Assembly: GCA_040755095.1 (NCBI GenBank)
Contig: JBFMBH010000004.1
Coordinates: 12,968-76,967 of the forward strand
Direction: 5' to 3'
Length of the DNA: 64,000 nucleotides
Origin: Thermodesulfobacteriota bacterium
Lineage (GTDB): Bacteria > Desulfobacterota > Desulfobulbia > Desulfobulbales > JBFMBH01
The position numbers were made by a program, and so were the translations under genes. The notes under the pieces are model-generated. The model did no database searches, was not told the origin of the DNA, and saw only the letters and a program-made list of their open reading frames with translations. Below are positions 9,772 to 43,338 of the stretch, in pieces; position 1 is the stretch's first letter; each line of letters starts with the position of its first letter.

Positions 9772-10156
9772 CTAGCTGCGGCGACGCACGGCAATGAGCC
9801 CAAAGAGGCCGGAGCCCAGGAGCAGCACGGAGGCCGGCACCGGAACCGGGCTGGCATCGTGGATCAGGACGCCGGTGCCGGAGCTCGGCTGCCCCACAAT
9901 ATCCCAAATCTCATAGGCTTCCACGCCCGGGATCGGCACCACATCATACTGGAGGTTGGTGACCACCGACCCGCCGCTCACCATGCCGAACTTGATGCCG
10001 AACTCTGCGGTCGGCCCCAGGGAGACGGTCGTCGAGTTCGGGGTGAAGCCCATGTACCAGGTGCCACCGAGGTTGCTGAAGTTCACTGTCCGGGTCCTGG
10101 CGGTGGGGGTGATCACCCACAGGGCGCTGCCCGGATTGCCCCAGTCGTAGAAGGCC
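9772..10156 (-). pseudogene. 5'-truncated PEP-CTERM paralogue (relic of tandem copy 1)
   Basis: It encodes only the C-terminal ~128 codons homologous to copies 2 and 3 (AFYDWGNPGSALWVITPTARTRT...VPVPASVLLLGSGLFGLIAVRRRS). An in-frame TAG sits directly upstream of AFYDW. Signal peptide, leader and promoter are all missing. Confidence 0.8.
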
Positions 10157-10202
10157 TAACTAAGGAAAGTGTGTCCCGCAGCCACGCGCCGGCAAAAGGC
10201 AC

Positions 10203-10247
10203 AAAAAAATCCGGAGGCGGCAGGGCCCGGACCCTGCTGCCTCCGGA
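10203..10247 (-). terminator. rho-independent terminator of PEP-CTERM copy 2
   Basis: The minus strand reads TCCGGAGGCAGCAGGG-tccggg-CCCTGCCGCCTCCGGA followed by UUUUUUU. Confidence 0.8.
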
Positions 10248-10272
10248 TGCGAAGTCTGAAACCGGATTGGCT

Positions 10273-10845
10273 CTAGTTGCGGCGGCCGCGCACAGCAATG
10301 AGCCCAAAAAGGCCGGAGCCCAGGAGCAGCACCGAGGCCGGCACCGGAACCGGGCTGGCATCGTGGATCAGGACGCCGGTGCCGGAGCTCGGCTGACCGA
10401 CAATATCCCAGATCTCATAGAGCTCGACGCCCGGAATCGGCACGACATCATACTGATAATTGGTGACCACCGAGCCGCCGCTCACCATGCCGAACTTGAT
10501 GCCGAACTCCGGGGTGGCCCCCAAAGATACGGTCGTCGAGTTCGGGGTGAAGCCCATGTACCAGGTGCCACCGAGGTTGCTGAAGTTCACGGTCCGGGTC
10601 CTGGCGGTGGGGGTGATCACCCACAAGGCACTGCCAGGATTGCCCCAGTCATAGAAGGCCATCCTGGGGTAGGTCGCGTTCTGGGCAACCAGGTGCAGGG
10701 CGAAGGTGAACACATCGTCCTGGGTGTTGTTGAGGTCGTTGGGCTGCCAGGCGCCACCATAGGTATAGGCACTCGCCGAGCTCGGCCGCGAGGCTGCAGC
10801 CAGCAGCACCAAGGCGATCACCGCCATCCATCGCATCTTCCGCAT
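10273..10845 (-). CDS. PEP-CTERM sorting-domain secreted protein (tandem copy 2)
   Basis: An RBS GAGGAGGAAG precedes the ATG at 10845. The signal peptide is MRKMRWMAVIALVLLAAASRPSSASA. The C-terminus VPVPASVLLLGSGLFGLIAVRGRRN has the PEP-CTERM layout: motif, transmembrane helix, Arg cluster. Confidence 0.85.
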   Translation of the reverse strand: MRKMRWMAVIALVLLAAASRPSSASAYTYGGAWQPNDLNNTQDDVFTFALHLVAQNATYPRMAFYDWGNPGSALWVITPTARTRTVNFSNLGGTWYMGFTPNSTTVSLGATPEFGIKFGMVSGGSVVTNYQYDVVPIPGVELYEIWDIVGQPSSGTGVLIHDASPVPVPASVLLLGSGLFGLIAVRGRRN

Positions 10846-10973
10846 CGTCTTCCTCCTCAGATTATGTTGGACCTTCGTTGCATCGGGTTGGGGTCTGCCC
10901 AGGCAGCCCCTCGACTCCACATTCCGCGCCGATCCCGGGAACCGGCGCTACCTTTCCATTGCCCCCTCCCCGC

Positions 10974-10990
10974 TAGCAGAAACCATGCCA
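10974..10990 (-). promoter_or_regulatory. sigma-54-type -24/-12 promoter (TGGCAT-N6-CTGCT) of copy 2
   Basis: The minus strand reads TGGCATGGTTTCTGCTA, with GG and GC 12 nt apart as in the TGGCAC-N5-TTGCW consensus. It is positionally homologous to the element upstream of copy 3. Confidence 0.6.
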
Positions 10991-11035
10991 TAACCGCAAG
11001 GGAAGCGCCCCCGCAGCCACAAGCCGGCCAAGAGC

Positions 11036-11082
11036 AAAAAAAAATCCGGAAGCAGCAGGGCCCGGACCCTCCTGCCTCCGGA
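11036..11082 (-). terminator. rho-independent terminator of PEP-CTERM copy 3
   Basis: The minus strand reads TCCGGAGGCAGGAGGG-tccggg-CCCTGCTGCTTCCGGA followed by a U9 run. Confidence 0.8.
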
Positions 11083-11107
11083 TGCGAAACCTGGATCGAA
11101 ATCGACT

Positions 11108-11680
11108 CTAGTTGCGGCGGCCGCGCACGGCAATGAGCCCGAAGAGGCCGGAGCCCAGGAGCAGCACCGAGGCCGGCACTGGAACCGGGCTGGCATCGTG
11201 GATCAGGACGCCGGTGCCGGAGCTCGGCTGACCAACAATGTCCCACACCTCATAGGCTTCCACGCCCGGGATCGGCACCACATCGTACTGAAGATTGGTC
11301 ACCACGCCGCCGCCGCTCACCATGCCGAACTTGATGCCAAACTCAGCGGTCGGCCCCAGGGAGACGGTCGTCGAGTTCGGGGTGAAGCCCATGTACCAGG
11401 TGCCACCGATGTTGCTGAAGTTGACTGTCCTGGTCCTGGCGGTAGGGGTGATCACCCACAAGGCACTGCCCGGATTGCCCCAATCGTAGAAGGCCATCCT
11501 GGGGTAGCTCACGTCCTGGGCAACTAGGTGCAGGGCGAAGGTGAACACATCGTCCTGGGTGTTGTTGAGGTCATTGGGCTGCCAGGCGCCGCCGTAGGTA
11601 TAGGCGCTCGCTGGGCACGGCCGCAGGGCTGCAGCAAGCAGCACCAAGGCGATCATCGCCATCCATCGCATCTTTCGCAT
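11108..11680 (-). CDS. PEP-CTERM sorting-domain secreted protein (tandem copy 3)
   Basis: An RBS GAGGAGGAAG precedes the ATG at 11680. The signal peptide is MRKMRWMAMIALVLLAAALRPCPASA, and the C-terminal PEP-CTERM motif is the same as in copy 2. Confidence 0.85.
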   Translation of the reverse strand: MRKMRWMAMIALVLLAAALRPCPASAYTYGGAWQPNDLNNTQDDVFTFALHLVAQDVSYPRMAFYDWGNPGSALWVITPTARTRTVNFSNIGGTWYMGFTPNSTTVSLGPTAEFGIKFGMVSGGGVVTNLQYDVVPIPGVEAYEVWDIVGQPSSGTGVLIHDASPVPVPASVLLLGSGLFGLIAVRGRRN

Positions 11681-11773
11681 CGTCTTCCTCCTCAGATTAT
11701 GCAAGACCTTCGTTTCATCGCGTCCTGCCCGATCCCGGGAACCGGCAGCACTTTCCATCTGCCCATCCCAAGC

Positions 11774-11790
11774 AAGCAGGAAGTGTGCCA
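11774..11790 (-). promoter_or_regulatory. sigma-54-type -24/-12 promoter (TGGCAC-N6-CTGCT) of copy 3
   Basis: The minus strand reads TGGCACACTTCCTGCTT with GG/GC spacing as in the consensus. It lies about 95 nt upstream of the start codon. Confidence 0.65.
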
Positions 11791-11894
11791 CTCATCTGAG
11801 GATCTGACCAGGCTGCCCAGCGCCACTCAGGAGACCAGTCGTGGCATTCCAACCAGCCAACCCTGCCCGATCAGCCCACCACCAATCCGATAAG

Positions 11895-11923
11895 CCGGAA
11901 AATCCGTTCGGAAAGCCGGAAAA
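11895..11923 (-). promoter_or_regulatory. candidate enhancer (UAS): CGGAA-repeat element
   Basis: The plus strand reads CCGGAAAATCCGTTCGGAAAGCCGGAAAA, centred about 120 bp upstream of the -24 element. A near-identical core, CCGGAAnAnCCGTTCGGAAA, occurs at 30797-30831 at the same relative position upstream of another PEP-CTERM gene. Confidence 0.5.
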
Positions 11924-12012: not shown

Positions 12013-12056
12013 CTCCCAGAAACACCAAGGCCGGCCAGAATGGCCGGCCTTGGTGT
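12013..12056 (-). terminator. terminator-like hairpin downstream of tRNA-Pro
   Basis: The minus strand reads ACACCAAGGCCGGCC-attc-(T)GGCCGGCCTTGGTGT followed by UUCUGGG. Confidence 0.55.
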
Positions 12057-12065
12057 GAAAAACCA

Positions 12066-12142
12066 TGGTCGGGACGAGAGGATTTGAACCTCCGACTCCC
12101 TGAACCCCATTCAGGTGCGCTACCAGACTGCGCTACGTCCCG
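12066..12142 (-). tRNA. tRNA-Pro (anticodon GGG)
   Basis: The minus strand reads CGGGACGTAGCGCAGTCTGGTAGCGCACCTGAATGGGGTTCAGGGAGTCGGAGGTTCAAATCCTCTCGTCCCGACCA. It folds as a cloverleaf with anticodon loop AUGGGGU and an encoded CCA. Confidence 0.93.
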
Positions 12143-19767: not shown

Positions 19768-19842
19768 TGGTAGGCGCGGGCGGGATTGAACCGCCGACTT
19801 CTACCGCGTCAAGGTAGCGCTCTCCCACTGAGCTACGCGCCT
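19768..19842 (-). tRNA. tRNA-Val (anticodon GAC)
   Basis: The minus strand reads AGGCGCGTAGCTCAGTGGGAGAGCGCTACCTTGACGCGGTAGAAGTCGGCGGTTCAATCCCGCCCGCGCCTACCA, 75 nt, with anticodon loop UUGACGC. Confidence 0.93.
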
Positions 19843-19966: not shown

Positions 19967-20617
19967 TCAGCCCCCGTTTGCTCCCCCCTGCCCCTGGCCG
20001 TCCACCGGACCCGGCGCACACGGCCGGCGGCCCTCGATGGCCCGGGCCAGGGTCACCTCGTCAGCATACTTGATGTCCATGCCCATGGGAATACCGAAGG
20101 CCAACCGGGAGATCCGAGCCGCTCCTCCGCGCAGGCGCTGGATGAGGAGGGCTGCCGTCGCCTCCCCCGGCACCGTGGAACTGGTGGCAATCAGCACCTC
20201 CCGGATCTGCGGCTGCCGGGCCCGGGCCACGAGCAGATCCACCTTGAGCTCCTCGGACCCGATGCCGTCCACGGGGGACAGCACGCCGTGGAGGACATGG
20301 TACAGGCCCCGGTAGGTACCGGACTTCTCCACCGCGGCCAGATCGCTGGCCTCCTCCACCACGCAGACCAGGCCCCGGTCCCGGGACGGATCGGCGCAGA
20401 CGGGGCAGGGATCGGTCGCCGAAAAGGCGCAGCAAACCGAACAGAGGCGGATGGCACCATGCAGCTCCGCCAGGCTCCGGGCCAGGGCCTGCGCCTCCGC
20501 CGCCGGCCGGCGCAGCAGGAACAGAGCCAGCCGGGTGGCGGTCTTCCTGCCGATGCCCGGCAGGCGGTGCAGGTCTTCGATGAGCCGGACCAGGGCCGCC
20601 GGCATGGTCTCCCGCAT
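19967..20617 (-). CDS. recR: recombination protein RecR
   Basis: LIEDLHRLPGIGRKTATRLALFLL is a helix-hairpin-helix. A CxxC...CxxC zinc finger (CSVCCAFSATDPCPVC) and a Toprim region follow. The start was chosen downstream of the ybaB stop. Confidence 0.9.
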   Translation of the reverse strand: MRETMPAALVRLIEDLHRLPGIGRKTATRLALFLLRRPAAEAQALARSLAELHGAIRLCSVCCAFSATDPCPVCADPSRDRGLVCVVEEASDLAAVEKSGTYRGLYHVLHGVLSPVDGIGSEELKVDLLVARARQPQIREVLIATSSTVPGEATAALLIQRLRGGAARISRLAFGIPMGMDIKYADEVTLARAIEGRRPCAPGPVDGQGQGGANGG

Positions 20618-22740: not shown

Positions 22741-22843
22741 TGATAGCCAGGCACCCTGCGGCACACAAAGGATCTTGCTACCGTTGCTTCCTCCCGGACC
22801 TGGCGGGGTTCGCAAGACTTTGTTGCGCAGGACCCGGCTATCA
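22741..22843 (-). ncRNA. ffs: signal recognition particle RNA (small/4.5S type)
   Basis: The minus strand forms a long hairpin: 5' GATAGCCGGGTCCTGCG pairs with 3' CGCAGGGTGCCTGGCTATC. It contains the conserved CCAGGUCCGGGAGGAAGCAAC domain IV motif and is followed by a U7 run. This is the classic position upstream of dnaX. Ends are approximate, within about 5 nt. Confidence 0.85.
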
Positions 22844-22861
22844 AACCGAAGTCCTTTCTTC

Positions 22862-22954
<93 letters not shown>

Positions 22955-23044
22955 TGATGGCAAACGGTTGTCGAGGGATATCTCCTCCCGGCGGGCCGCC
23001 ATACCCCAACGGGCATTTCAGGCTTCCGGCTGACGACATGGCTT

Positions 23045-23113
<69 letters not shown>

Positions 23114-23137
<24 letters not shown>

Positions 23138-24712: not shown

Positions 24713-25726
24713 TCACGACTGAAGACCGGGCTCCAGGACCTGTCCGCCCGCCTTCCAGCAGCGGGCCCAGTGGCCAGGGCCAATGGCGTAGGCGGCGATT
24801 GCCCCGGCCCGGCAGCGGGCCTCCACCAGGGGACAGCGGCCCTGGAAGCGGCAGCCCCGGGGGAGATCCACCGGGCTCGGCGGCTCGCCGGGCAGGACCG
24901 CGAGACCACGGCCTTCGTCCGGACGTACAGAAGGCACTGCCGCCAGAAGCGCCCGGGTGTACGGATGGCTGGGCCGGGCAAAGACCGCCCCGCAGGGACC
25001 ATACTCCATGATATGCCCCAGATACATGACCGCCAGCGTGTGGCTGAGATAGCCCACCACATGGAGGTCGTGAGAGATGAACAGGTAGCCAAGCCCCAGC
25101 TCGGCCTGGAGATCGGTCAAAAGGTTCACGATCTGGGACTGGATGGACACGTCCAGGGCTGACACCGGCTCGTCGCACACGATGAGCCGCGGCCGGACAG
25201 ACAGCGCCCGGGCAATGCCGACCCGCTGGCGCTGGCCGCCGGAAAACTCGTGGGGGTAACGGCCGGCCGCCGCCCGGGGCAGGCCCACCATCTCCAGAAG
25301 CTCGGCCACCCGGGCCCGGCGCTCCGGGCCGCGACCGCCCTCCTGCCGCACCCCTTCCTCGATAGCCTCGCCTACGGTCATACGGGGGTTCAAGGATCCG
25401 TACGGGTCCTGGAAGATGATCTGCATCTGCCGCCGCAGACGCCGCAGCTCCCCTGCCGGCATGCGGCCCAGGTCCTGATCCTGGAAGAGAACCCGGCCGC
25501 CGTCGGCGGGCAGGAGCCGGAGCACCAGCCGGCCCACGGTGGACTTGCCGCAGCCGCTCTCCCCGACCAGCCCCAGGGTTTGGCCCGGGGCCATCGCCAG
25601 GTCAATGCCGTCCACCGCCTTGATCCAGCCCGCCGGCCGTTGCAGAACGCCGCGCCGCAGCGGAAAATATTTTTTGAGCCCCTGAACCGTCAACAGCTGC
25701 TCCCCAGTGCTGGATGGCCCGCTCAC
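24713..25726 (-). CDS. ABC transporter ATP-binding protein, OppF/DppF type
   Basis: Walker A (GESGCGKST), signature (FSGGQRQRVGIARAL) and Walker B (LIVCDEPVSALD) are present. The C-terminal oligopeptide-type extension is SHPYTRALL...GCRFQGRCP. The GTG start overlaps the upstream TPR gene stop (GTGA). No permease or binding-protein gene is nearby. Confidence 0.88.
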   Translation of the reverse strand: MSGPSSTGEQLLTVQGLKKYFPLRRGVLQRPAGWIKAVDGIDLAMAPGQTLGLVGESGCGKSTVGRLVLRLLPADGGRVLFQDQDLGRMPAGELRRLRRQMQIIFQDPYGSLNPRMTVGEAIEEGVRQEGGRGPERRARVAELLEMVGLPRAAAGRYPHEFSGGQRQRVGIARALSVRPRLIVCDEPVSALDVSIQSQIVNLLTDLQAELGLGYLFISHDLHVVGYLSHTLAVMYLGHIMEYGPCGAVFARPSHPYTRALLAAVPSVRPDEGRGLAVLPGEPPSPVDLPRGCRFQGRCPLVEARCRAGAIAAYAIGPGHWARCWKAGGQVLEPGLQS

Positions 25727-27993
25727 GGCTGCCCCCCTGTCCCTTCCTGGGCCGAGCCCGCCCGCTGCCTGTCCAGGCGCTGGCCCATATCCCGGGCCCG
25801 CTTGTACAGCCCCTCCGCCTCCATGTAGCGCCCCTGGGCCTGGCAGTTGGCAGCCAGAGCAGACAGTCCCAGGACGATGTTGCCGTGCTCCGGCCCGAAG
25901 GCCTGCTCCCAGATCGCCAGGCTGCGCCGCAGGAGCGGCTCGGCCTCCTGGTAGCGTCCCTGGTCCTGATGAAGACCAGCCAGGTTTCTGAGCACCGCCG
26001 CCACATAGGGATGCTCCGGCCCCAGGTGCTCCTCCCAGACGCTCAGGGCACGACGGTAGAGGGTGTCGGCCTGCCGGAAGCGACCCTGACCGTGGAGCAG
26101 CCGCGCCAGGTCATTGAGGATCTCGCCTTGCAGGGAATCGCTGGGCGCCACGGCCTGCTCGGCACCGGCCAGGGCCTCCCGGAACAAGACCTCAGCGGGC
26201 TCGGTCCGCCGCTCAGCCAGCAGCAGACGGGCCAGGCGGGCCTGCCAGCGGGCCAGCTCGCCCCGGTCGGCACCGGGCTGGGCCGCCAAGAGATCCACCG
26301 CCCGGCGCAACGAGGCCTCGGCCTCGGCGAGGCGCCCCCCCTGCTCGTGAACGCTGGCCAGGCCCCCCAGGGCCGGCACCAGCTCCAGGGCTGCCGTGCC
26401 CTGGCTGGCCTCGATGATCCCCAGCAGCCGGCGGTAGGTCTCCTCCGCCGCAACCGGCTGAGCGACCCGTTCCTGGAGATCCGCCAGGATCAAGAGCGGC
26501 TCGACAAGCTCAGGTGCCTGGGTGCCAAAGGTGGCTTCCCAGATCGCCACCGCCCGGGCCTGGAGCGGCAGGGCAGCGCCCGGTCCCTGGGTTGCCAGAC
26601 GCAGGCTGGCCACAAGCTGCAGCTGACCGGCTACGAAGGGATGCTCCACCCCGAAAAGCCTTTCCCATACCGCGACCGCCTGGCCGGCTAACGGCTCCGC
26701 CTCCCCCAACCGCCCGGCCAGGCGCAGGCAGTCCACCAGATCCGAGAGGCTGGCCGCGGTCCAGGCGTGGTCAGGGCCAAACTCCTGCCGGCGGATGGCG
26801 TACGACTCCCGCAGGAGCGGCTCCGCAGCCTGGGGCTGCCCCTGGGCCAGGAACAGACGCCCCCGGTCGGTCAAGGTCTCGGCCAGCTCCGGATCATCCG
26901 CCTCCAGGATGCGGCGCTGGATGGCCAGGGCCTGCTCCAGGGTGCCAGCAGCTGCGGCGGTCTCCCCCAAAGCCTTTTGCACCTCGGCCAGAGCCCGGAG
27001 CGTTGGCAACAGGTCGGAATGGGAAGGCCCCAGGGCGGCCCGCCACTCCGCGAGCGCCGCCTCCAGCGCAGCCTTGGCCACCGGCAGGTCGCCCCGGTCC
27101 CGATTGACCCGGCCAAGCCCCAGAAGACAGGCAGCCAACCGGCCCCGCTGCCGTGGCTCCACGGCGGCCAAGGCCGCCAGGGCCTGCAAATAGCCGGCCT
27201 CGGCCTGGCCGAGATCGCCCACTCTTTCCTGCGTCTGGGCCAGGGCCAAAGCAGCGGAGGCCGCGGCTGGGTGGCGGCCTCCGTGCGAGGACAGGGTCAG
27301 GGCCAGCACCCGGGTTCGGAGCTGACTGGCCGCCGGCATCTCCCCCAGCTCCTCGGCAGCCGCGGCCTGGCGGGCCAGGAGGTCGGCCAACAGCCCGTCG
27401 GCTCCTGCTCCGGCCGGCACCAGTTCTGTCGCTTGGCCATAGATACTGGCCGCCTCGGCGGTGGCCAGCAGCATGAAGGCCCGGTCGCCGTCGAAGCCGA
27501 GCAGGGTGGCGGCGGCCAGAGCCCCCTGGCCGCCGGTGGCCTTCTCCCGGGCCTGGCCGGCCAGGCGGGCCAGCTCCTCGTGCAGCCGGCCCAGCTCACC
27601 GGCATTGAGCCAGATCAGAAGCTGAGCCGCCCCGGGATCGCCGGACAGACTGTCCTCCTCCCATGCCGCGAGCCGGTTGCGGACCAGGCGGTAGCGCTCG
27701 CTCATGAGCCGCAGGCGCTCCCGGCGCTCCCTGGTCGTCAGCCGGTCAGGAAGCGCCTGCCGCAACGCCTGATAGACCCCGGCTGGCAAGCCGAGACGTT
27801 GCGGGCCGGGATCCGCATCCCCGCTGGCCGGGGCAGCGCTCTGGCCGGCCGGCTCCACCACGGGAGGCGGAGCCGGCTCCCCGCCGGGCTGTCCCCGCTG
27901 CCGCATTCCGCGGACGAGGCCCAGCCCCAGAGCCGGAACCAGCAGGCCCACGAGCAGCAGCCACAAGGCGGGTCGGTTGCGGAGGTCGGTCAT
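25723..27993 (-). CDS. membrane-anchored tetratricopeptide-repeat protein
   Basis: 756 aa. An N-terminal transmembrane helix (PALWLLLVGLLVPALGLGLV) and a Pro-rich linker are followed by many 42-residue TPR_12-like repeats (...LAxLxxxQGRYxEAEPLxxRALAIxExxxGPEHP...). Confidence 0.85.
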   Translation of the reverse strand: MTDLRNRPALWLLLVGLLVPALGLGLVRGMRQRGQPGGEPAPPPVVEPAGQSAAPASGDADPGPQRLGLPAGVYQALRQALPDRLTTRERRERLRLMSERYRLVRNRLAAWEEDSLSGDPGAAQLLIWLNAGELGRLHEELARLAGQAREKATGGQGALAAATLLGFDGDRAFMLLATAEAASIYGQATELVPAGAGADGLLADLLARQAAAAEELGEMPAASQLRTRVLALTLSSHGGRHPAAASAALALAQTQERVGDLGQAEAGYLQALAALAAVEPRQRGRLAACLLGLGRVNRDRGDLPVAKAALEAALAEWRAALGPSHSDLLPTLRALAEVQKALGETAAAAGTLEQALAIQRRILEADDPELAETLTDRGRLFLAQGQPQAAEPLLRESYAIRRQEFGPDHAWTAASLSDLVDCLRLAGRLGEAEPLAGQAVAVWERLFGVEHPFVAGQLQLVASLRLATQGPGAALPLQARAVAIWEATFGTQAPELVEPLLILADLQERVAQPVAAEETYRRLLGIIEASQGTAALELVPALGGLASVHEQGGRLAEAEASLRRAVDLLAAQPGADRGELARWQARLARLLLAERRTEPAEVLFREALAGAEQAVAPSDSLQGEILNDLARLLHGQGRFRQADTLYRRALSVWEEHLGPEHPYVAAVLRNLAGLHQDQGRYQEAEPLLRRSLAIWEQAFGPEHGNIVLGLSALAANCQAQGRYMEAEGLYKRARDMGQRLDRQRAGSAQEGTGGQP

Positions 27994-29804: not shown

Positions 29805-29897
29805 AGGAGACAACGACCGCCGCCCCGAGCCGCTGCACCCGTTGCCGGCGAGACCGAAGCGGAGCGCTACCCGCCGGAGGTGTCGTGGCACGCACCC

Positions 29898-29939
29898 AAA
29901 AAAAGGCAGGGCCGCCCGGAGATGAGCGGCCCTGCCTTT
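29898..29939 (-). terminator. rho-independent terminator (possibly bidirectional)
   Basis: The stem GGCAGGGCCGC/GCGGCCCTGCC has a 10-nt loop, with A7 on one side and T3 on the other. On the minus strand it is followed by U7, downstream of the PEP-CTERM gene at 29967. Confidence 0.8.
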
Positions 29940-29966
29940 GGGGGCAGAGGGGAAACGAGCCCCGTG

Positions 29967-30560
29967 CTATCTCTGTCGCCGCCGGCAGGCCAGGCCGGCA
30001 AGGCCAGAGCCCAGAAGGAGGATGGAGGCAGGCGCGGGCACCGGGGTCCCGGCATCCGAGGAGACTACCAGCTCCGTCACGCGCCAGGATTCATCGTTGA
30101 TGCCCTGAAATCCAGAGCCATAGCCATAGAAGGAGAGGCTCAACGTGGTCGCCGTGTGGGCAAAGGTGAAGCCGTTGTTGTAGTTCTGGAAGTAGCGATC
30201 GATTGGCCCCCAGCTGTTGATGCCGTTGTAGTTGCCGATTCCATCGGCGGTATCGGTGTTGGACTCGGCCCCGCCGAAGTTGTCAAATGTCCAGCCCTGA
30301 GCCGCCCCGTCCACACTGAAACCGAAGGCGTCTGGTGACCAGCCACCATCCGAGCCATCCCAGCTGTCCATGATGAAGAGGTCAAAATTGACGGTGACCG
30401 TTGAATGTGGCGCCAGGCCACTCAGATTGATGGTCACGGCATCTGTGGTATGGTCGCCCAGGTTGGGATTGGAGTAAATAACCGTCGATGCTTGTGCCAG
30501 GTTGGTCATGCCGAGCATCAAGAATCCGGTTGCCAATGCGGCCCGCAGCAGTCTCTTCAT
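29967..30560 (-). CDS. PEP-CTERM sorting-domain secreted protein (unrelated mature domain)
   Basis: The signal peptide is MKRLLRAALATGFLMLGMTNLAQA. The C-terminus is TPVPAPASILLLGSGLAGLACRRRQR. The ATG at 30560 follows GGAGCGAGACCACG. Confidence 0.85.
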   Translation of the reverse strand: MKRLLRAALATGFLMLGMTNLAQASTVIYSNPNLGDHTTDAVTINLSGLAPHSTVTVNFDLFIMDSWDGSDGGWSPDAFGFSVDGAAQGWTFDNFGGAESNTDTADGIGNYNGINSWGPIDRYFQNYNNGFTFAHTATTLSLSFYGYGSGFQGINDESWRVTELVVSSDAGTPVPAPASILLLGSGLAGLACRRRQR

Positions 30561-30684
30561 CGTGGTCTCGCTCCTTCGGTTGCCTTGTTCTGCCAAGTGT
30601 GAGAGTCCCCGCCCTGGGGGGGAGGCGGCCGATTAGCATCTTTGGCCGCCACGACGGCTCAGGGTGCCGCCTGCGCAGAAGGCT

Positions 30685-30701
30685 ATGCATAAAGGGCGCC
30701 A
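30685..30701 (-). promoter_or_regulatory. sigma-54-type -24/-12 promoter (TGGCGC-N6-ATGCA)
   Basis: The minus strand reads TGGCGCCCTTTATGCAT with GG/GC spacing as in the consensus. It lies about 125 nt upstream of the start codon at 30560. Confidence 0.55.
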
Positions 30702-30796
30702 CCCTGCCGAGCGGGAGGTCTTCTTTCAACATCCAGCAATTTCAACCAGTTGGTCGGATGGTTGCCGGCTGCCCGACAAGGAGTCCATTCGGCAAT

Positions 30797-30831
30797 CCGG
30801 AATAGCCGTTCGGAAACGCGGAAGCCGGAAT
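30797..30831 (-). promoter_or_regulatory. candidate enhancer (UAS): CGGAA-repeat element
   Basis: The plus strand reads CCGGAATAGCCGTTCGGAAACGCGGAAGCCGGAAT. Its first 20 nt match 11895-11914 at 18/20 positions. It is centred about 112 bp upstream of the -24 element. Confidence 0.5.
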
Positions 30832-31175
30832 CCCCTTCCCCACCCGTCCTGCCCCCCCGGCATCGCATGGGCATATCTCTCCTTGGCGTGTTCCATGGGG
30901 GCTGCGGCCGAGGCACCGTTGTCCTGGCCGGGATGTCCATCGTATGCCTCCCGGAAGCCGCGCCGGTCAAGCCAGCTGCTGGCTGCGGATCATTGCCAAG
31001 AGCGGTCCGCTGGGGCAGATGAAGGGGCGGTTGCCGCATGCCGGAAAGCCACCCCTCCGGAGCTTGCGGCCGGCAGCGGATCCGCCAACCCTGCACAGGG
31101 GCACTGCACGAGCCATGACCGGGTCGTCTGCGCCTCTCCTCGTGCCTTGGCCGGCGAGCGGAGGCCTCGGCGCAT

Positions 31176-31209
31176 AAAAAAAGACCCCAGGGGGCAACCC
31201 CCCGGGGCC
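31176..31209 (-). terminator. rho-independent terminator of ppaC
   Basis: The minus strand reads GGCCCCGGGGGG-ttg-CCCCCTGGGGTC followed by U7, 36 nt after the ppaC stop. Confidence 0.8.
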
Positions 31210-31244
31210 TTGGACCGTGTGGCCGAACAGCGGCGGAAAGGATC

Positions 31245-32165
31245 TCAGCAGCCGAAGGCCTTCTGCAGCGGCGGCACGGTCTGCTTCTTGCGGCTCATCA
31301 TGCCGGGCAGCCACATGGACTCGCCCTGGAGCTTGCCACCAAAGGCCTTCTCGATGAGGGCCGGATCCTCGGAGACCACCAGAAGATCGGTGCCTTCCTT
31401 GACCACGTCGGTGAGCATGAACAGGACCGAGTGGCGGCCGTCGGCCTTGAGACCCTGGAGGGCCTTGACCAAGTCGGAGCGGACCCCAGCGGCCTGGTCG
31501 ATGGTCGCCAGCTCCAACTGGCCGATGCCCACCTTCTTGCCGTTCATGTCGAAGTCCTTGAAGTCGCGGTTCAAGAGGTCGTTGATCGGCACGCCGTCGA
31601 TGGAGGACTTGGCCTTGAGCATCTCCATGAACACCGCGTCCCGGTCGGTGATGCCGGCGATCTTGGCGAGCTCGGCCACCGCCGCCTTGTCCTCGTCGGT
31701 GCAGGTGGGGGACTTGAAGTTGACGGTATCGCTCAGGATGGCGCACAGCATGATGCCGGCCATCTGCTTGGAGATGGCGACGTTGGCGCTCTTGTACATC
31801 TCGGTGATGACGGTGCAGGTGCAGCCCACCGGCTTGGCGTAGAAGAAAATGGGGTTGTTGGTGGTGACGTCGCCGATCTTGTGATGATCCACGATCTCGA
31901 CGACGTCATTGGCGCTCATGTTGGCCGGGCCCTGGGCCAGGTCGCTGAAATCCACCAGAATGATCTTCTTGCCGGCGGCGTCGGTCATGATCTCCGGGGT
32001 CGCGGCCCCGAACTTGCTGAGCACCACCTGGGCCTCGGGATTGAGCGGTCCCTGCATGACCGGCACGGCATCCATGCCCTGGGCCTTGCGCAGGTTGGCC
32101 AGGGCGATCGCCGCCGCCACAGAATCGGTATCCGGACTCTTGTGCCCCACCACATAGACAGACAT
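31245..32165 (-). CDS. ppaC: manganese-dependent inorganic pyrophosphatase (family II, DHH)
   Basis: MSVYVVGHKSPDTDSVAAAIA...VDHHKIGD...DGRHSVLFMLTD shows the DHH/DHHA2 motifs. An RBS AAGGAGGAG precedes the ATG at 32165. Confidence 0.92.
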   Translation of the reverse strand: MSVYVVGHKSPDTDSVAAAIALANLRKAQGMDAVPVMQGPLNPEAQVVLSKFGAATPEIMTDAAGKKIILVDFSDLAQGPANMSANDVVEIVDHHKIGDVTTNNPIFFYAKPVGCTCTVITEMYKSANVAISKQMAGIMLCAILSDTVNFKSPTCTDEDKAAVAELAKIAGITDRDAVFMEMLKAKSSIDGVPINDLLNRDFKDFDMNGKKVGIGQLELATIDQAAGVRSDLVKALQGLKADGRHSVLFMLTDVVKEGTDLLVVSEDPALIEKAFGGKLQGESMWLPGMMSRKKQTVPPLQKAFGC

Positions 32166-33302: not shown

Positions 33303-36014
33303 TCAGGGCGCGGTGGCGATGGAGTCGATCTCGATGGCGCAGCCGCTGGTGACCGTGGGATCCAGGCGCAGGCTGCGGATCTCCCGGCCGGCCCACTCGC
33401 CATGGGCCGCCGTGTCGATCAGGTAGTCGTGGAACTGGCCGTCGGCGGTGACCGCGAAGTTAATCTTCCTCAGCTCCGACTCGGACAGAGCAGTGCTGTG
33501 GGTCCAGAAGAGCTGGCCGGTGGTGGTGGCCGCCGCGCTGCAGCTGGTTTTCATGCGCACCGCCAGCAGGGGCACCTCGTTGCCGGCAAAGGACATGCCG
33601 CTGCGTCGCAGGTAAGGATCGGTGCCGGTGCTGGAGGTGGCCAGCGCGCCACCCGACACCACCAGGGAGGTCAGGTGGGTGTTCTTCACCCAGCCCTCGG
33701 TGTCACCGGCCGCCTCGAACTGGAAGCTCACCGGGCTCGCCGCGGTGGTGACCGCCACCACGTTGCTGCTGGCGGATTCCCCCTGACCGTTGACCGCCTT
33801 GACCCGGAGCCAGTAGCTGGTGGCCCGGGCAAGCCCGGAGACGGTGCTGGTCACGAAGTTGCTGCCATTGTCCGCTGCCACGACCCAGGTGCTGCCATCG
33901 GTGGACCGCTCGACGACGAAGCCGTCCTCGTCGTCGGCATGGTCTGTCCACCGGAGGTCGACCCGGTTGTGGAAGACAGCGGACGCCACCAGGCCGCTGG
34001 GGGCGGCGGGCGGCGCCGCGGCCGGGGCAGGCGGCGGTACCGTCTGGATGAAATCGATGGCCATGGCGGCGCCGGCCACGTCCGTGGGATCCAGGCGCAG
34101 GCTGCGGATGTCCTTGCCGGCCCACTGGGGATGGCCGGACAGATCCAGGGCGTACAGATGGAACTGGCCGTCGACGATGGGGGTGAAGGCCAGGGCCTTG
34201 GACATCGATTCTGCGGTGTCGCTGGTGGTGGTCCAAAGAACATGGCCGACGCTGCCAGCGGAGACCTTCATCTACGGGGTATTGGGCTCCAGGCCCTGGT
34301 CGACAAAGCTGCTGGAGGTGCCGCCCATAGCGTGGTTGATGGCCGGCGCAGTGCCGATCTGCACCCAGCCGCCGGTGCCGGTGAGGGATCTTTCCACCGT
34401 GAAGCCCTCTTCGTAGTCCAGCCGGCCATGGGGCAGGTGACGCCAGGAGAAGGCGAGCCCATTGACCGAGGTGCTGGACATGGTCAGGGCCGTGGGCGCC
34501 GGCGGCGGCAGCTCGGCCGGCGGCAGCTCGTTGCGCCAATCGATGGGATTGCTGAACCGCCAGGAGATGTGGCAGGCGTTGCTGGAGCAGGTGCCACCGC
34601 CGACCTTGGGCTGATAAACAAAGCTCAATGGCTGCCAGGCCTGGTGGGCGAAGAACTGGGGGGCGGCCACCACGTCCATCCGGCCATTGACATGGATCGA
34701 CCGGTCCCGGATCGAGATGGCGCCGGCAGCTGGATCCTTCTGCACACTGGTGGCATGGCACAGCTCGCAGGTGCAGCCCCGGGAGATGTGAGTCCAGTGG
34801 GCGTCGCCGGCCGGCGGCCGGCCGTGGCAGTTGTTGCAGGTGTCGCTGTCCCCCTGGGGATCGGAAGCGGAGCCATCCCAGGCCAGTGAGCGGCCGGTGA
34901 CCCGGCGGCCGTCCACACTGCTCTTGCCGTCGCTGTGGCAGTAGACGTTGTCACAGGTCAGGGCATCGTCCTTGACCACCGCGGTGCCGTTGGTGGCCTG
35001 TAGTCGTAGCCGGTGACCGCCGGGGACACCGCGGTCTGGCCGTGGAAGATGGTATTTTCTCCAGCGCGGCCGAAGGTGGCAAAGCCGATCTGGATCCTGG
35101 AGTCATCGTAGACCGGGCTGGCCGGCATCCCGCCGCTATGGCAGTTGTCGCAGGCAAAACCGTAGCCGGTGGCCTGGTCGACATGGATCCGGTGGGCGCC
35201 GGCGGACGCCGAGCCGGTGGGCGACGGGATGTCCACCAGGCCGTCCGGGCTGCCCGGGGCGTCGGTTACCGGCGGGTAGCCGTGGCAGGCCAGGCAGCTG
35301 GGCGCAAAGCCGGTGGCGTGGTCATGGCAGTCGGTGCAGGTGCGGCCGCTGAAATGGTCGGCCAGCATGGCGTTGGCCCGCCAGTGGTCGGTGGCGGTGT
35401 GGCAGACCTGGCAGACCCCGTCCGGGCTGGGGTCGGCCGCCGGATCGCCACCATCGTCGGCAAAGCCGTTCGTGCCCTCACGGTCGAAGAGCTTCACCGG
35501 CTTCAGGCTGTGGTCCGCCGGGTTCTCCATCTCCTCCTTGACATACTGGCCGTAGAGGATGGCGAAGGCGTCGCCGCTGGCCACCTGGCCGGCATAGGCC
35601 GGGATGGCGGCGATATTGCCGCTCACTGTGATGGAGGCGGCGTCGGCGGCAAGGATCTCGAAGCTCACCTCCGGGGCCGCCAGGCTGGGCAGAAGGATGA
35701 GACCGCGGCCCGGTCCGGTCTTGTGGCTCCAACGGCCAGGATCCGCCCAGGCGGCCCGTGCGGTAGACATTGGCGTCGTGGCACTCCTGGCAGGAGGCAG
35801 CCGGCAGCACCGTCCGGTCGTGGCGGGCCTCATGGCTTGCGCCGTGACAGGCGGCGCAGTTGGCGGCCTGCACATGGCTGGCCTGGTGACAATCCGTGCA
35901 CTCCACCGCCAGGGCGTAAGCCAGGCCGGGCGCCCCGGCGAGCCATCCCAGAAGACCGCCCTGCACCAGGACCGCCACCACGGACAAGATGCCGCTCCGC
36001 CTTCCCTGTCGCAT
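33303..36014 (-). pseudogene. large secreted multihaem cytochrome c / FN3-domain protein, disrupted by 2 frameshifts and 1 in-frame TAG
   Basis: An RBS GGGGGAAGG precedes the ATG at 36014, and the signal peptide is MRQGRRSGILSVVAVLVQGGLLGWLAGAPGLAYA. Coding sense moves from the frame of ORF 35478..36128 to the frame of 34958..36073 near 35740-35765, then to the frame of 34272..34979 near 34990-35005. A TAG lies at 34272-34274. The gene carries 9 CxxCH and 2 CxxxxCH motifs, two FN3-like domains and a duplicated C-terminal domain. Confidence 0.7.
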
Positions 36015-40067: not shown

Positions 40068-40475
40068 ATGCATCCTTTTCCCAGCACCCACAGCGTCACC
40101 ATCGGCTACATCCTCTGGATCTTCGGCTTCACCGGCTCGCACCGCTTCTACTACGGCAGGCCCATCTCCGGTACGGTCTGGTTTTTTACCTTGGGCCTTC
40201 TGGGCATCGGCTGGCTGGTGGACCTGTTCCTTATTCCCGCCATGGACCGGCAGGCGGACCTGCGCTTTGTGCCCGGGCCCATCGACTACACGGTGGCCTG
40301 GATTCTCCTCACCTTTCTGGGCCTGTTCGGGGCGCACCGGATCTACATCGGCAAATGGCCAAGCGGTATCCTGTATCTTCTCACCTGTGGCCTGTTCGGG
40401 ATCGGGGTCATCTATGACTTCTGGACCCTCAACAGCCAGATCAGCCTCAAGAACAGCCAAGGGAGCCTGCGATGA
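40068..40475 (+). CDS. TM2 domain-containing membrane protein
   Basis: 135 aa with two repeats of the GxHRFYxGxxxxG TM2 pattern (GSHRFYYGRPISG and GAHRIYIGKWPSG) in hydrophobic segments. Confidence 0.8.
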   Translation: MHPFPSTHSVTIGYILWIFGFTGSHRFYYGRPISGTVWFFTLGLLGIGWLVDLFLIPAMDRQADLRFVPGPIDYTVAWILLTFLGLFGAHRIYIGKWPSGILYLLTCGLFGIGVIYDFWTLNSQISLKNSQGSLR

Positions 40476-42503
40476 TGTCAGAGAGCCTGCCGCCGTCCCC
40501 TGAGAAAGCTGTCCATGCCGCCGGCCGCGACCTCATGGACAGCCTGCGCGCCGAGGACATCCTGGCCGCCATGGGCGATCCGGTAAGCATCCAGGATACC
40601 AGCCTGGTCATCCGGTACCAGAACCCCGCCCACCAGGCCCTGGTCGGCGATCACCGGGGAGAGCCCTGCTTTGTCGCGTACGAGGGACAGGATCACCCCT
40701 GCGACCGCTGCCCGCTTCTGGCCGCCTTCCGGGATGGACAAACCCATCTCTGCGAGCGCACAGGCCGCGGGTCCCAGGGCGAGGCCGTCATCGAGATCAC
40801 CGCCTCGCCCCTCCGGGACAGCCAGGGACGCATCGTGGCGGGCATCGAGGTCTGCCGGGACATCACAGTCCGGCGCCGCGAAGAACAGGCCTTGCGCCAG
40901 GCCCACAGCCAGGCGGTCGAGGACCGGCGCCGTCTGGGCGCTGTCCTGGAGCACAGCCCAGACACCGTGGCCATCCTGGATGCCAGCGGCCGGATCGTCT
41001 ACCTCAATGACAGCGGCCGCCGGCTCCTCGGTCTGGACACCGTGGAATCAGGACTGGGACGCCCCTTTGCCGACCTGATCCCGGCCAGTGACCACTCCCT
41101 GTTCACCAACTCCATCCTGCCGATCCTGCACCGCCGTGGTGAGTACCGGGGAGAGCTCCGGATCCAGCATCTGGCCAGCAGCCGGCCAGTGCCGGTGGAG
41201 ATGACCGCTTTCCGGTTGGACGAAGCAGGCTCGGCCGCTCTCAGCATCCGGGAGATCACCGAACGGCTCCGCCAGCAGGTGGCCCTGCAGGAGGCCAGAA
41301 GCAAGGCGGACGCGGCCCTCGCGGCCAAGAGCCAGTTCCTGGCCAACATCAGCCACGAGATCCGAACGCCCTTGAACGGCATCGTTGGCATGCTGGCCAT
41401 CGCCCTGGGCAGCGACCTGCCGGCAGACATCCGCCGCCACCTGGACATGGCCCGGGACTCGGCGGACCGCCTGGTGGGCATCGTGGGCGACGTCCTGGAC
41501 TTCTCCCGGATCGAGGCCCGGCAGCTGCGGCTGGCAGACCAGCCCTTCCAGCTGCGGGCCCTTCTGGAAAGGACGATGCCGATCTTCGCCGTGCAGGCCC
41601 GGGCCAAGGGGCTGGACCTGTCCTGGCAGATCGACAGCGACGTGCCCGACCTGCTGCAGGGGGATGGCGAGCGCCTGCGTCAGATCCTGGTCAACCTCCT
41701 GGCCAACGCCGTCAAGTTCACCAAGACCGGTTCCGTCGCCGTCCGGATCAGCACCGAGATGCTGGACCTCGAGAAGGTGCTCCTGCATGTGACGGTGCAG
41801 GATACCGGTGTCGGCATCCCCCGCAAGGAGCTGGATGGGATCTTCGAGCCTTTCAGCCAGGCGGACGGCTCCCACACCCGGCGCTACGGCGGCGCCGGTC
41901 TGGGCCTCGCCATCGCCTCCCGGCTGGTGGCCCTCATGGAGGGACACATCTGGGTGGAGAGCGTCCCGGCCAAGGGCTCCACCTTCCACTTCACCGCGCT
42001 CTTTCCATATCAGCCCAGCGTACAAGCCGCCCCCCCCCCCCAGCGCCACGCCTGTTGCTCCCCGGGAAGCCGGCGCCAGCCCGCCAGCCGCCACAGCCAC
42101 CGTACCGGCACCGCCCCCCCGGCAGGCCCGCATCCTCTTGGCCGAGGACGACGAGGTCAATCAGGCCCTGGCGGTCACCGTTCTGGAGCAGGCCGGCTGG
42201 CTGGTCACCGCGGTGGCCAACGGCCAGGAGGCGCTGGCCGCCCTGGAGGCCCAGGGCTTCGATCTGGTGCTCATGGATCTGCAGATGCCGGTCATGGACG
42301 GGCTGGCGGCGGTACACCGCCTGCGGCAGCGGGAGAAGGTCGCCGGCGGGCATCTGCCGGTGGTGGCCATGACCGCCCACGCCATGAAGGGGGACCGGGA
42401 GCGCTGCCTGGCCGCCGGCATGGACGACTACCTCGCCAAGCCCATCGGCATCGCCGACCTGGTGGCCATGGTCCGCCGCTACCTGCCGCCGCAGGCCCAG
42501 TAG
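40472..42503 (+). CDS. hybrid sensor histidine kinase/response regulator (2 PAS + HisKA + HATPase + REC), frame broken at a C12 tract
   Basis: The H-box is FLANISHEIRTPLNGIVGM and the G-boxes are GGAGLGLAI. After 42030-42041 the receiver domain (ILLAEDDEVNQ...DLVLMDLQMPVMDG...LAKPI) continues in another frame, that of ORF 41808..42503. Eleven Cs would give a single ~676-aa ORF. The ATG overlaps the TM2 gene stop (ATGA). Confidence 0.8.
42030..42041 (+). repeat. homopolymeric C12 tract
   Basis: Twelve consecutive C residues were counted directly in ...caagccg-CCCCCCCCCCCC-agcgcc. The tract lies in the Pro-rich linker between the kinase core and the receiver domain. Confidence 0.95.
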
Positions 42504-42504
42504 C

Positions 42505-43338
42505 TCAGCGGCCCTCGCCAGTGTCGCCCCGGATGGGCAGCTCGGCCAGGGCCGCCTCGACGCCGGCGCGGACGTCGTCGGCCCGGCGGGAGTCGCTGTT
42601 GAACCAGCGGCCGTCGTCGTACCAGAGGAGCCGGCCGCTGGCGGCCTCCAGCCAGTAGATCTGGACCGCCAGGCCCCGGGGCACCGTGGTGCCGGCGGCA
42701 AAGCCCGGACCGCCCAGCCCGCCGCCGTCCGATGGCCGGTACGGAGGAAACTGGATCTGCCCGCAGGGGGGAAACTCGAAACGGCCGTCGCAGCCCACCA
42801 CCACCGCCGCCACCAGGCTGCCGGCGCCGCCGGCCAGGGAGCGGACCAGATCCGGCGCCACCCCGCGATCGGTCGTGCGCCGGCCCTCGTTCTTCTCGTG
42901 CAGCCGCACCCCGCGGCCGATGGCATCCAGGGCCTGAAGAAGCTGGCCCGCCCCGGCGGCGCGGTGCTCCTCCGCCGCCAGCTCGGCGCCCGCCGCAAGC
43001 CCCGGGTACTCCCGCGGCTCGGCCAGACGCACCGTCCAGCCCCGCTGGCCAAAGCCTGCGGCCAGCACCTCCGCCACCCAGGCCGCCAGGCCTTGGCTGG
43101 CCTCGGCATCCACCAGGGCCTCGCGGCTGAACAGCTCGTTTTCATAGACCGAGGCCAGGGGCCAGAGCACCAGCACCGGCTCGGCGCTGCCGAGGGCTGC
43201 CGCCAGGTCGGGGTGCCGGACGCTATCCGGGCCGCTGGCGCAGCTGGCCAGGGCCAGGGCAGCGGCCACAAGGCTAGTCCTGGCGGCCGTAGGTGTCTTC
43301 CAGGCGGACGATATCGTCTTCGCCCAGGTACGACCCAT
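42505..43338 (-). CDS. lipoprotein, unknown function
   Basis: The lipobox is LVAAALALASC. The body looks like coding sequence (...VLVLWPLASVYENELFS...). The start is uncertain: the ATG at 43338 overlaps the manC 3' end by 65 nt, and an alternative GTG lies near 43264. Confidence 0.6.
   Translation of the reverse strand: MGRTWAKTISSAWKTPTAARTSLVAAALALASCASGPDSVRHPDLAAALGSAEPVLVLWPLASVYENELFSREALVDAEASQGLAAWVAEVLAAGFGQRGWTVRLAEPREYPGLAAGAELAAEEHRAAGAGQLLQALDAIGRGVRLHEKNEGRRTTDRGVAPDLVRSLAGGAGSLVAAVVVGCDGRFEFPPCGQIQFPPYRPSDGGGLGGPGFAAGTTVPRGLAVQIYWLEAASGRLLWYDDGRWFNSDSRRADDVRAGVEAALAELPIRGDTGEGR

Follow-up and report, generated by a model that had tools for sequence, protein, structure and literature searches.

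A non-canonical TTCCG-repeat block upstream of a candidate sigma-54 promoter at a solitary PEP-CTERM gene

In the NtrC-glnAp2 and NifA-nifH systems, the activator site is located approximately 80-150 nt upstream of the sigma-54 promoter and on the same helix face, an IHF-induced bend of the intervening DNA is optional and the off-state is tight. The activator sites of NtrC and NifA are clear inverted repeats, which read TGCACC-N5-GGTGCA and TGT-N10-ACA, respectively.

A layout of this kind has also been described for PEP-CTERM genes. In proteobacteria, these genes mostly form single-gene operons preceded by intergenic regions of more than 200 nt (Haft et al. 2006, PMC1569441). The upstream element, designated motif 1, comprises 17 nt ending in TTTACA and is separated from the sigma-54 motif by a spacer of 62.8 +/- 10.6 nt (maximum 92); PrsK, PrsR and PrsT (TIGR02915-02917) phylogenetically co-occur with this arrangement (PMC1569441). 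The PrsR orthologue DVUA0057 was found by DAP-chip to bind upstream of the PEP-CTERM genes of Desulfovibrio vulgaris (Rajeev 2011, PMC3333781), and 28 DVUA0057 sites of the form TGTCGGA-N-TTTACA or TGTCGG-N5-CCGACA have been listed (Kazakov 2015, PMC4641369). For pepA of Aquincola tertiaricarbonis, dependence on RpoN (RpoN1) and a mapped transcription start have been reported (PMC9850573). Given this work, the general architecture is already known. The arrangement at the present locus belongs to a class reported for PEP-CTERM genes in 2006; the new part is a non-canonical upstream site, which differs from the published PEP-CTERM box and takes its place.

The solitary PEP-CTERM gene and its candidate promoter

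The analysis covers one contiguous stretch of 64 kb, subsequently designated the window. Its ThrS is 69-73% identical to the proteins of named Desulfobulbia (Desulfocapsaceae, Desulfobulbus, Desulfofustis, Desulfurivibrio). The solitary PEP-CTERM gene sits among housekeeping genes, and the following elements delimit its transcription unit.

29967-30560, minus strand: solitary PEP-CTERM gene, encoding 197 aa
30576-30571, minus strand: ribosome-binding site AAGGAG, 10 nt before ATG 30560 (direct reading)
29902-29939, minus strand: intrinsic terminator of the solitary PEP-CTERM gene, a 16-bp stem followed by a T-run
31181-31211, minus strand: intrinsic terminator of the upstream gene for a Mn-dependent pyrophosphatase

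The 197-aa protein, a presumed secreted surface protein, passes the PEP-CTERM model TIGR02595 with 18.9 bits (cutoff 16). It is composed of a putative Sec-type signal peptide, a family-specific domain and the sorting tail VPAPASILLLGSGLAGLACRRRQR, in which the PEP-like motif, the hydrophobic helix and the basic cluster of the tripartite PEP-CTERM tail are all present. The N-terminus, MKRLLRAALATGFLMLGMTNLAQA/S, resembles a Sec signal by inspection. We found 43 homologues, the majority of which carry PF07589; they exhibit 40-65% identity and come from genomes that are much more A+T-rich.

The gene is a single-gene unit flanked by two strong intrinsic terminators, and the terminator at 31181-31211 insulates it from read-through out of the pyrophosphatase gene. 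The intergenic region upstream comprises 683 nt and is non-coding; ORFs overlapping it were rejected as genes, as their GC1/2/3 profiles are flat. A single-gene operon, more than 200 nt of non-coding upstream DNA and a sigma-54 motif are found together here, as described by Haft and co-workers. No sigma-70-like promoter was detected in 29850-31300, and Rfam yielded no match in the leader or in the intergenic region. Since the predicted leader is not more structured than shuffled sequences (z = -0.37), a riboswitch or leader structure was rejected.

Several further observations concern the surroundings of the unit. Approximately 350 nt of non-coding DNA (30832-31180), with neither an Rfam match nor a credible ORF, separate the activator block described below from the pyrophosphatase terminator. 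An additional TTCCGGC is located at ~31046, 486 nt upstream of ATG 30560. At 33303-34979 (minus strand), a gene for a protein with a fibronectin type III domain adjoins one whose product carries a cytochrome domain of the Geobacter CxxxxCH/CxxCH type.

Two elements were delineated close to the predicted transcription start.

30685-30703, minus strand: candidate sigma-54 promoter GGTGGCGCCCTTTATGCAT, with the -24 GG at 30700-30699 and the -12 GC at 30688-30687
30660-30671 and 30695-30706: 12-nt inverted repeat CAGGGTGGCGCC / GGCGGCACCCTG, bracketing the promoter, 11/12 positions complementary

The initial annotation had proposed a correctly spaced -24/-12 match on the minus strand, about 125 nt upstream of the start codon. 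Direct reading bears this out: TGGCGCCCTTTATGCAT is present at 30701-30685 with GG-N10-GC spacing, and 125 nt separate the end of the -12 element from ATG 30560. The promoter reads TGGCGC-CCTTT-ATGCA. Its spacing is right, and there are two mismatches to the 11-base TGGCAC-N5-TTGCW-like consensus, namely a G at -22 and an A in place of the T that should precede the -12 GC. When the window was scanned with a matrix derived from 87 published promoters of D. vulgaris (PMC4641369, Additional file 6), the candidate scored 12.3 bits. This corresponds to rank 8 among 127,964 window positions and lies above only 8% of the published sites, within a range that has its minimum at 6.2 and its 10th percentile at 13.2. 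Five of the sites outscoring the candidate fall within the coordinates of identified genes. The window shows no enrichment of the -24/-12 consensus as such (11 matches versus 7.8 expected; 27 versus 29.5 in a second count). Elsewhere in the window, a site at 20514-20529 was discarded as a chance match, as it resides inside a recR-like coding region.

Judged by its score alone, the promoter at 30685 does not stand out from the best chance matches in the window. Support for it is drawn from its context, i.e. from the upstream block, from other genomes, from phasing and from the single-gene unit. The candidate is intergenic, correctly oriented and has the activator block 95-115 nt upstream, which is the layout of a sigma-54 promoter. 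Given the block, the probability of a promoter-like site this good within the expected 41-nt spacing range is p ~0.002. Transcription is predicted to start near 30675, which would yield a leader of ~115 nt. The upstream arm of the inverted repeat holds the -24 element. At least one such repeat appeared in 18% of composition-matched simulations of 684 nt; the repeat is possibly an operator or else a product of chance, and it offers a possible alternative origin of the TGGCGCC at the -24 element.

The TTCCG-repeat block and its sister region

Upstream of the candidate promoter lies a block of TTCCG repeats, which has a counterpart in front of a tandem family of PEP-CTERM genes elsewhere in the window. 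The relevant elements are as follows.

30785-30831, minus strand: candidate upstream activator block, TTCCGGC-TTCCG-CGT-TTCCGAAC-GGCTA-TTCCGG-AT-TGCCGAATGG
30823-30797, minus strand: conserved core, TTCCG-N3-TTCCGAAC-N5-TTCCGG
30740-30752, plus strand: IHF-like site TTTCAACCAGTTG, which differs from WATCAANNNNTTR at one position and is located in the middle of the spacer, in its relatively A+T-rich part
11882-11921, minus strand: sister activator block, TTCCG-GCT-TTCCGAAC-GGATT-TTCCGG-CT-TATCGGATTGG
11774-11792, minus strand: strong sigma-54 promoter AGTGGCACACTTCCTGCTT of the first tandem gene, 20.9 bits, rank 2 in the window
10974-10992, minus strand: strong sigma-54 promoter TATGGCATGGTTTCTGCTA preceding the second tandem gene, with the highest matrix score in the window (22.7 bits)
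9772-11792, minus strand: tandem PEP-CTERM family, with genes at 11108-11680 and 10273-10845 and a 5'-truncated third copy at ~9772-10160

Four CGGAA repeats had been annotated at the solitary gene. Indeed, CCGGAATAGCCGTTCGGAAACGCGGAAGCCGGAAT is found at 30797-30831 on the plus strand, with CGGAA starting at 30798, 30811, 30819 and 30826. However, the element is better described as a structured block, in which the core TTCCG-N3-TTCCGAAC-N5-TTCCGG is followed by a second half-unit, TTGCCGAATGG. Clusters of CGGAA occur in the window only at 11896-11921 and 30798-30830. Likewise, both the exact 11-mer TTTCCGAACGG and the core TCCGAAY-N5-TTCCG were found only at the solitary and the sister block when both strands (128 kb) were searched, and no match to the core lies inside a gene. 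Copies of the 11-mer or the core with one mismatch are absent from the window, and matches with two mismatches are at chance level. The repeat block is far beyond chance.

Symmetry within the block is restricted to the short elements TTC-S-GAA and TCCGGA; it is dominated by direct TTCCGRA repeats at intervals of 8 and 13 nt. Each unit spans 21-22 nt, or about two helical turns, and the second one is degenerate. Direct rather than clearly inverted repeats are less typical of Fis-type HTH activators. The sister block contains two exact copies of TTTTCCGGCTT at a spacing of 21 nt, and its second unit is TATCGGATTGG as compared to TTGCCGAATGG at the solitary gene. From the end of TTCCGG to the TGG of the promoter, the spacer measures 95 nt at the solitary gene and 104 nt in the sister region.

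According to the initial annotation, the architecture of the solitary gene mirrors that of 11774-11923. This is correct insofar as a common block is followed by a sigma-54-like site in both regions. The promoter strength implied by the comparison must be revised, however, as the site at 30685 is far weaker: it falls into the 8th percentile of the published sites versus the 82nd and the 95th for the tandem-gene promoters.

The shared architecture had further been regarded as regulatory rather than as a by-product of gene duplication, and this view is upheld. Local alignment of the two upstream regions (683 versus 524 nt) recovered the 30-nt block only, in which 25/30 positions are identical. 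The alignment score of 35 compares with 21.4 +/- 2.5 (maximum 33) for shuffled sequences, and the second-best alignment (score 22) is at chance level. When the proteins were compared, the 197-aa protein and the tandem family had the C-terminal sorting tail alone in common, in agreement with the earlier description. As similarity is limited to a single block and the proteins resemble each other only in their tails, joint duplication of gene and upstream region is excluded.

Each of the three tandem copies is followed by a terminator. The promoter of the second tandem gene is without an activator block of its own; the tandem duplication took in the sigma-54 promoter and the leader, not the upstream block. 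Among 5.8 billion proteins, the tandem family has one non-self homologue (P0045, 84% identity). Directly upstream of the sister block, a tRNA gene with a perfect 16-bp terminator hairpin (12022-12056) is located, and an SRP RNA and two tRNAs are encoded just upstream of dnaX; the RNA genes are at 22742-23137, 19771-19842 and 12069-12142, all on the minus strand.

Recurrence, helical phasing and comparison with the PEP-CTERM box

To find further instances of the block, 185,579 species-representative genomes were scanned with the two-unit pattern TTCCGNNNTTCCGAANNNNNNTTCCGG, which gave 77 matches, and metagenomes were scanned with a 19-base pattern, which gave 29. Nearly all of the 77 genome matches were rejected, being single chance matches in unrelated phyla or conserved coding sequence (e.g. 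the Chryseobacterium set); one of them, L081, is convincing and a second, L056, is suggestive. Most metagenome matches are noise, including a repeated human-gut sequence, and the inspected ones are coding apart from the intergenic match L095. In all, the block is represented by ~4-6 instances in two very large collections.

L081 is an uncultured deltaproteobacterium MAG with 39% GC. Here, the block TTCCGTTTTTCCGAACATCTTTTCCGG is followed at +101 by TGGTATGATTTTTGCA, which scores 14.7 bits, and the downstream gene encodes a PEP-CTERM protein with a signal peptide that ends in TPEPATMILLGTGLAGLIAVQRKKTV and resembles the 197-aa protein in its tail only. Diverged blocks were detected upstream of two homologues of the 197-aa protein: ATCCGAACCGTTTTTCCGA in L114 (58% homologue), ~130 nt upstream of a sigma-54-like site, and GTTCCGAAT-N11-TTCCGGGTATCCGGA in L118 (65% homologue), at a similar distance. 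The other block-bearing genomes have 33-40% GC, and their blocks have the same orientation relative to the sigma-54 sites. The TTCCG site is probably specific to a Desulfobulbia-related lineage. The IHF-like site in the spacer of the solitary gene is weak evidence for IHF-assisted bending; one-mismatch IHF-like sites are likewise present in the L081 and L114 spacers.

Many homologues of the 197-aa protein have a sigma-54-type site 80-230 nt before the start codon. The scores are 16.5 bits in L001, 11.0 bits in L002, 11.1 bits in L115 and 9.3 bits in L004, and the sites in L114 (8.3 bits) and L118 (9.6 bits) are weak. Neither a box nor a clear sigma-54 site was seen at the homologue loci L112/113, L117 and L119/120. 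The sites in L001, L002 and L115 and the top two matches in the window suggest that sigma-54 promoters are a trait of the cargo family. In L005, a paralogue is located directly upstream of the homologue.

Two further loci deserve mention. In the Desulfobulbaceae MAG L056, a PEP-CTERM gene with a sigma-54-like site (12.3 bits) is flanked on either side by TTCCGRA clusters (features at 341-360, 796-814, 900-1547 and 1971-1997); one cluster is inverted and lies ~450 nt upstream, the other is found ~420 nt downstream of the stop codon. In the metagenome contig L095 (3590-3730), the block TTCCGTATTTCCGAATATAAATTCCGGAA is accompanied by a sigma-54-like site at +123. Downstream of it there is no PEP-CTERM gene, just a 13-codon ORF; the target could be a small RNA or a peptide, or the match could be due to chance.

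TCCGAAY and the -24 GG lie 93, 114, 115, 123, 134 and 135 nt apart, which corresponds to 7.5 to 10.0 modulo 10.5. With the best-scoring promoter-like site per region as input and only 4-6 data points, the Rayleigh R at 10.5 bp was 0.89 for all six distances, 0.93 without L095 and 0.97 when one instance per genome was considered. Monte-Carlo analysis of the phasing yielded p = 0.003-0.006, and p = 0.02-0.03 when the period was optimised between 10 and 11 bp. The upstream sites lie on one helix face relative to the promoters, as enhancer-dependent activation predicts.

These data bear on the possibility that the match at 30685 arose by chance, that the promoter of another sigma factor is used and that the block binds a repressor or an activator other than an enhancer-binding protein. 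The score of 12.3 bits, which does not stand out from those of the best chance matches, and the lack of enrichment of the consensus in the window would be in line with such a scenario. Moreover, the inverted repeat over the -24 element could be an operator, and direct repeats at 8 and 13 nt resemble the sites of other response-regulator families. However, we consider this scenario unlikely: a search for sigma-70-like promoters was negative, an unambiguous sigma-54 promoter (20.9 bits) follows the sister block and orthologues possess good sigma-54 sites. The phasing across genomes and the p of ~0.002 within the spacing range also argue against it and in favor of a sigma-54 promoter at 30685.

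To compare the block with the published box, we employed a matrix derived from the 28 published DVUA0057 sites, the scores of which have a minimum of 10.6 and a median of 17.4. The canonical PrsR box TGTCGG-N5-TTTACA is absent at the solitary gene (best score -0.3) and in the sister region at 11.7-12.2 kb (best score 0.0), and the best score in L081 is 3.7. As positive control served L001, a 63%-identical homologue, in which two PrsR boxes, TGTCGAAAAATTTAACA (18.9) and CGTCGGTTTTTTTTACA (16.0), are located upstream of a strong sigma-54 promoter (4669-4787 locus). Outside L001, scores of at least 16 were obtained for four sites in 808 kb of fetched DNA, i.e. ~1 per 200 kb. The L001 boxes lie inside a called 93-aa ORF without a Pfam match, which is probably a spurious gene call. 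The words TTCCGAA and TTCCGG do not occur in the other D. vulgaris activator motif sets, and our literature search found no paper linking TTCCGAA to an enhancer-binding protein.

The locus has much in common with the PrsR regulon: an upstream site, which is sometimes repeated, is followed by a spacer and by a sigma-54 promoter ~50-130 nt before the start codon, the cargo genes form single-gene units behind long non-coding regions, and unrelated cargo is placed under a common site. The site itself is different, i.e. a 17-nt dyad TGTCGG-N5-(CCG/TTT)ACA in the PrsR regulon and TTCCG-N3-TTCCGAAC-N5-TTCCGG here, and the spacer of ~63 nt in the former contrasts with 95-105 nt in the latter, which is outside the published spacing. 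Both sites contain a TCGGA/TCCGA core, whereas their flanks differ and the gap between CGG and CCG is 5 nt in the PrsR box and 4 nt in the block.

It is on this common core, and on the sharing of Haft's layout, in which a single gene is preceded by a long intergenic region with an upstream site and a sigma-54 site, that one could build the case for classical PrsR of published specificity binding the TTCCG block as a degenerate PEP-CTERM box. We regard this as very unlikely, since the matrix, which gives 18.9 and 16.0 in L001, does not exceed -0.3 at the solitary gene, 0.0 at the sister locus and 3.7 in L081, CGG and CCG are separated by 4 instead of 5 nt, the block lacks the TGT/ACA flanks and its spacer to the promoter is 95-105 nt as against 62.8 +/- 10.6 nt. 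That the shared block is a non-functional relic, such as a duplicated upstream fragment or a small dispersed repeat, is highly improbable: its two copies in the window are 25/30 identical and the tandem genes show that duplication occurs locally, but the flanks lack any similarity, the two blocks precede unrelated genes, genomes of 33-40% GC have the block with the same orientation and phase to sigma-54 sites, and the 64 kb contain just two copies, none of them within a gene.

With NtrC-glnAp2 and NifA-nifH, the locus shares the distance of the upstream site and would share the demand for a defined helix face, the optional IHF bend and the tight off-state; in contrast to the NtrC and NifA sites, the block consists mainly of direct TTCCGRA repeats at spacings of 8 and 13 nt. 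Aquincola pepA resembles the loci in the window in that its TGGCAC/CTGCTT hexamers are shared with the sister promoter at 11774-11792 and in that a terminator follows the gene. It differs in that it adjoins prsT and is said to carry the enhancer predicted previously (PMC9850573). Compared to pepA, the solitary gene has a weaker promoter and another upstream site.

Proposed mechanism and meaning

Trans-acting partners were sought in the window. A GAFTGA / Walker-A activator signature is not present in any frame of the 64 kb, and no rpoN, enhancer-binding protein, exosortase (EpsH/XrtA family) or prsK/prsR/prsT gene is found among the genes scanned there. The activator of the TTCCG block is not encoded in the window. 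The gene at 25723-27993 (minus strand) encodes a 756-aa TPR protein that does not match PrsT and whose match to the TPR family of the FxSxx-COOH system stays below threshold, and the gene at 40472-42658 (plus strand) encodes a PAS/PAS histidine kinase, which has no adjacent response regulator among the identified genes and the domains of which are not PrsK-like.

In our favored model, which we consider probable, the weak sigma-54 promoter stays off as long as no AAA+ enhancer-binding protein has assembled on the TTCCG block. The solitary PEP-CTERM gene would be transcribed as an insulated single-gene unit from the sigma-54 promoter at 30685-30703, and the AAA+ protein would occupy the block 95-115 nt upstream of it. 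From there, looping of the DNA, possibly assisted by IHF bending in the spacer, would bring the activator into contact with the closed promoter complex, which it would open by ATP hydrolysis. The sequence elements with their specificity, recurrence and phasing and the lack of the canonical box are observed, and dependence on sigma-54, binding of an activator, looping and the nature of the activator are what we infer. As the same block precedes unrelated PEP-CTERM genes, the solitary and the tandem loci would belong to one regulon of exosortase cargo proteins. Since the arrangement is of the PrsR type but the DNA site is a different one, the candidates for the activator would be a PrsR orthologue of altered specificity and an enhancer-binding protein other than PrsR.

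In mechanistic terms, the locus falls within textbook sigma-54 biology, and for this reason it opens no long-standing question. Its meaning rather lies with the cargo family. PEP-CTERM/exosortase cargo is abundant in sediment and biofilm bacteria, and its control has largely been inferred from one predicted box. We tentatively raise the idea, as one that falls short of being probable, that a second PEP-CTERM box exists in a Desulfobulbia-related lineage, which is read by an enhancer-binding protein with a specificity other than that of PrsR and perhaps with a direct-repeat binding mode. If true, sigma-54 control of cargo would have been rewired, with one cargo family placed either behind the PrsR box, as in L001, or behind the TTCCG box, as in the window, L114 and L118. 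A second site with the same layout, phasing and cargo family would exemplify enhancer turnover within a sigma-54 regulon. In uncultured genomes of the Desulfobulbia type, in which a search with the published box would come up empty, the block may also serve as a motif to track down the regulon and its activator.
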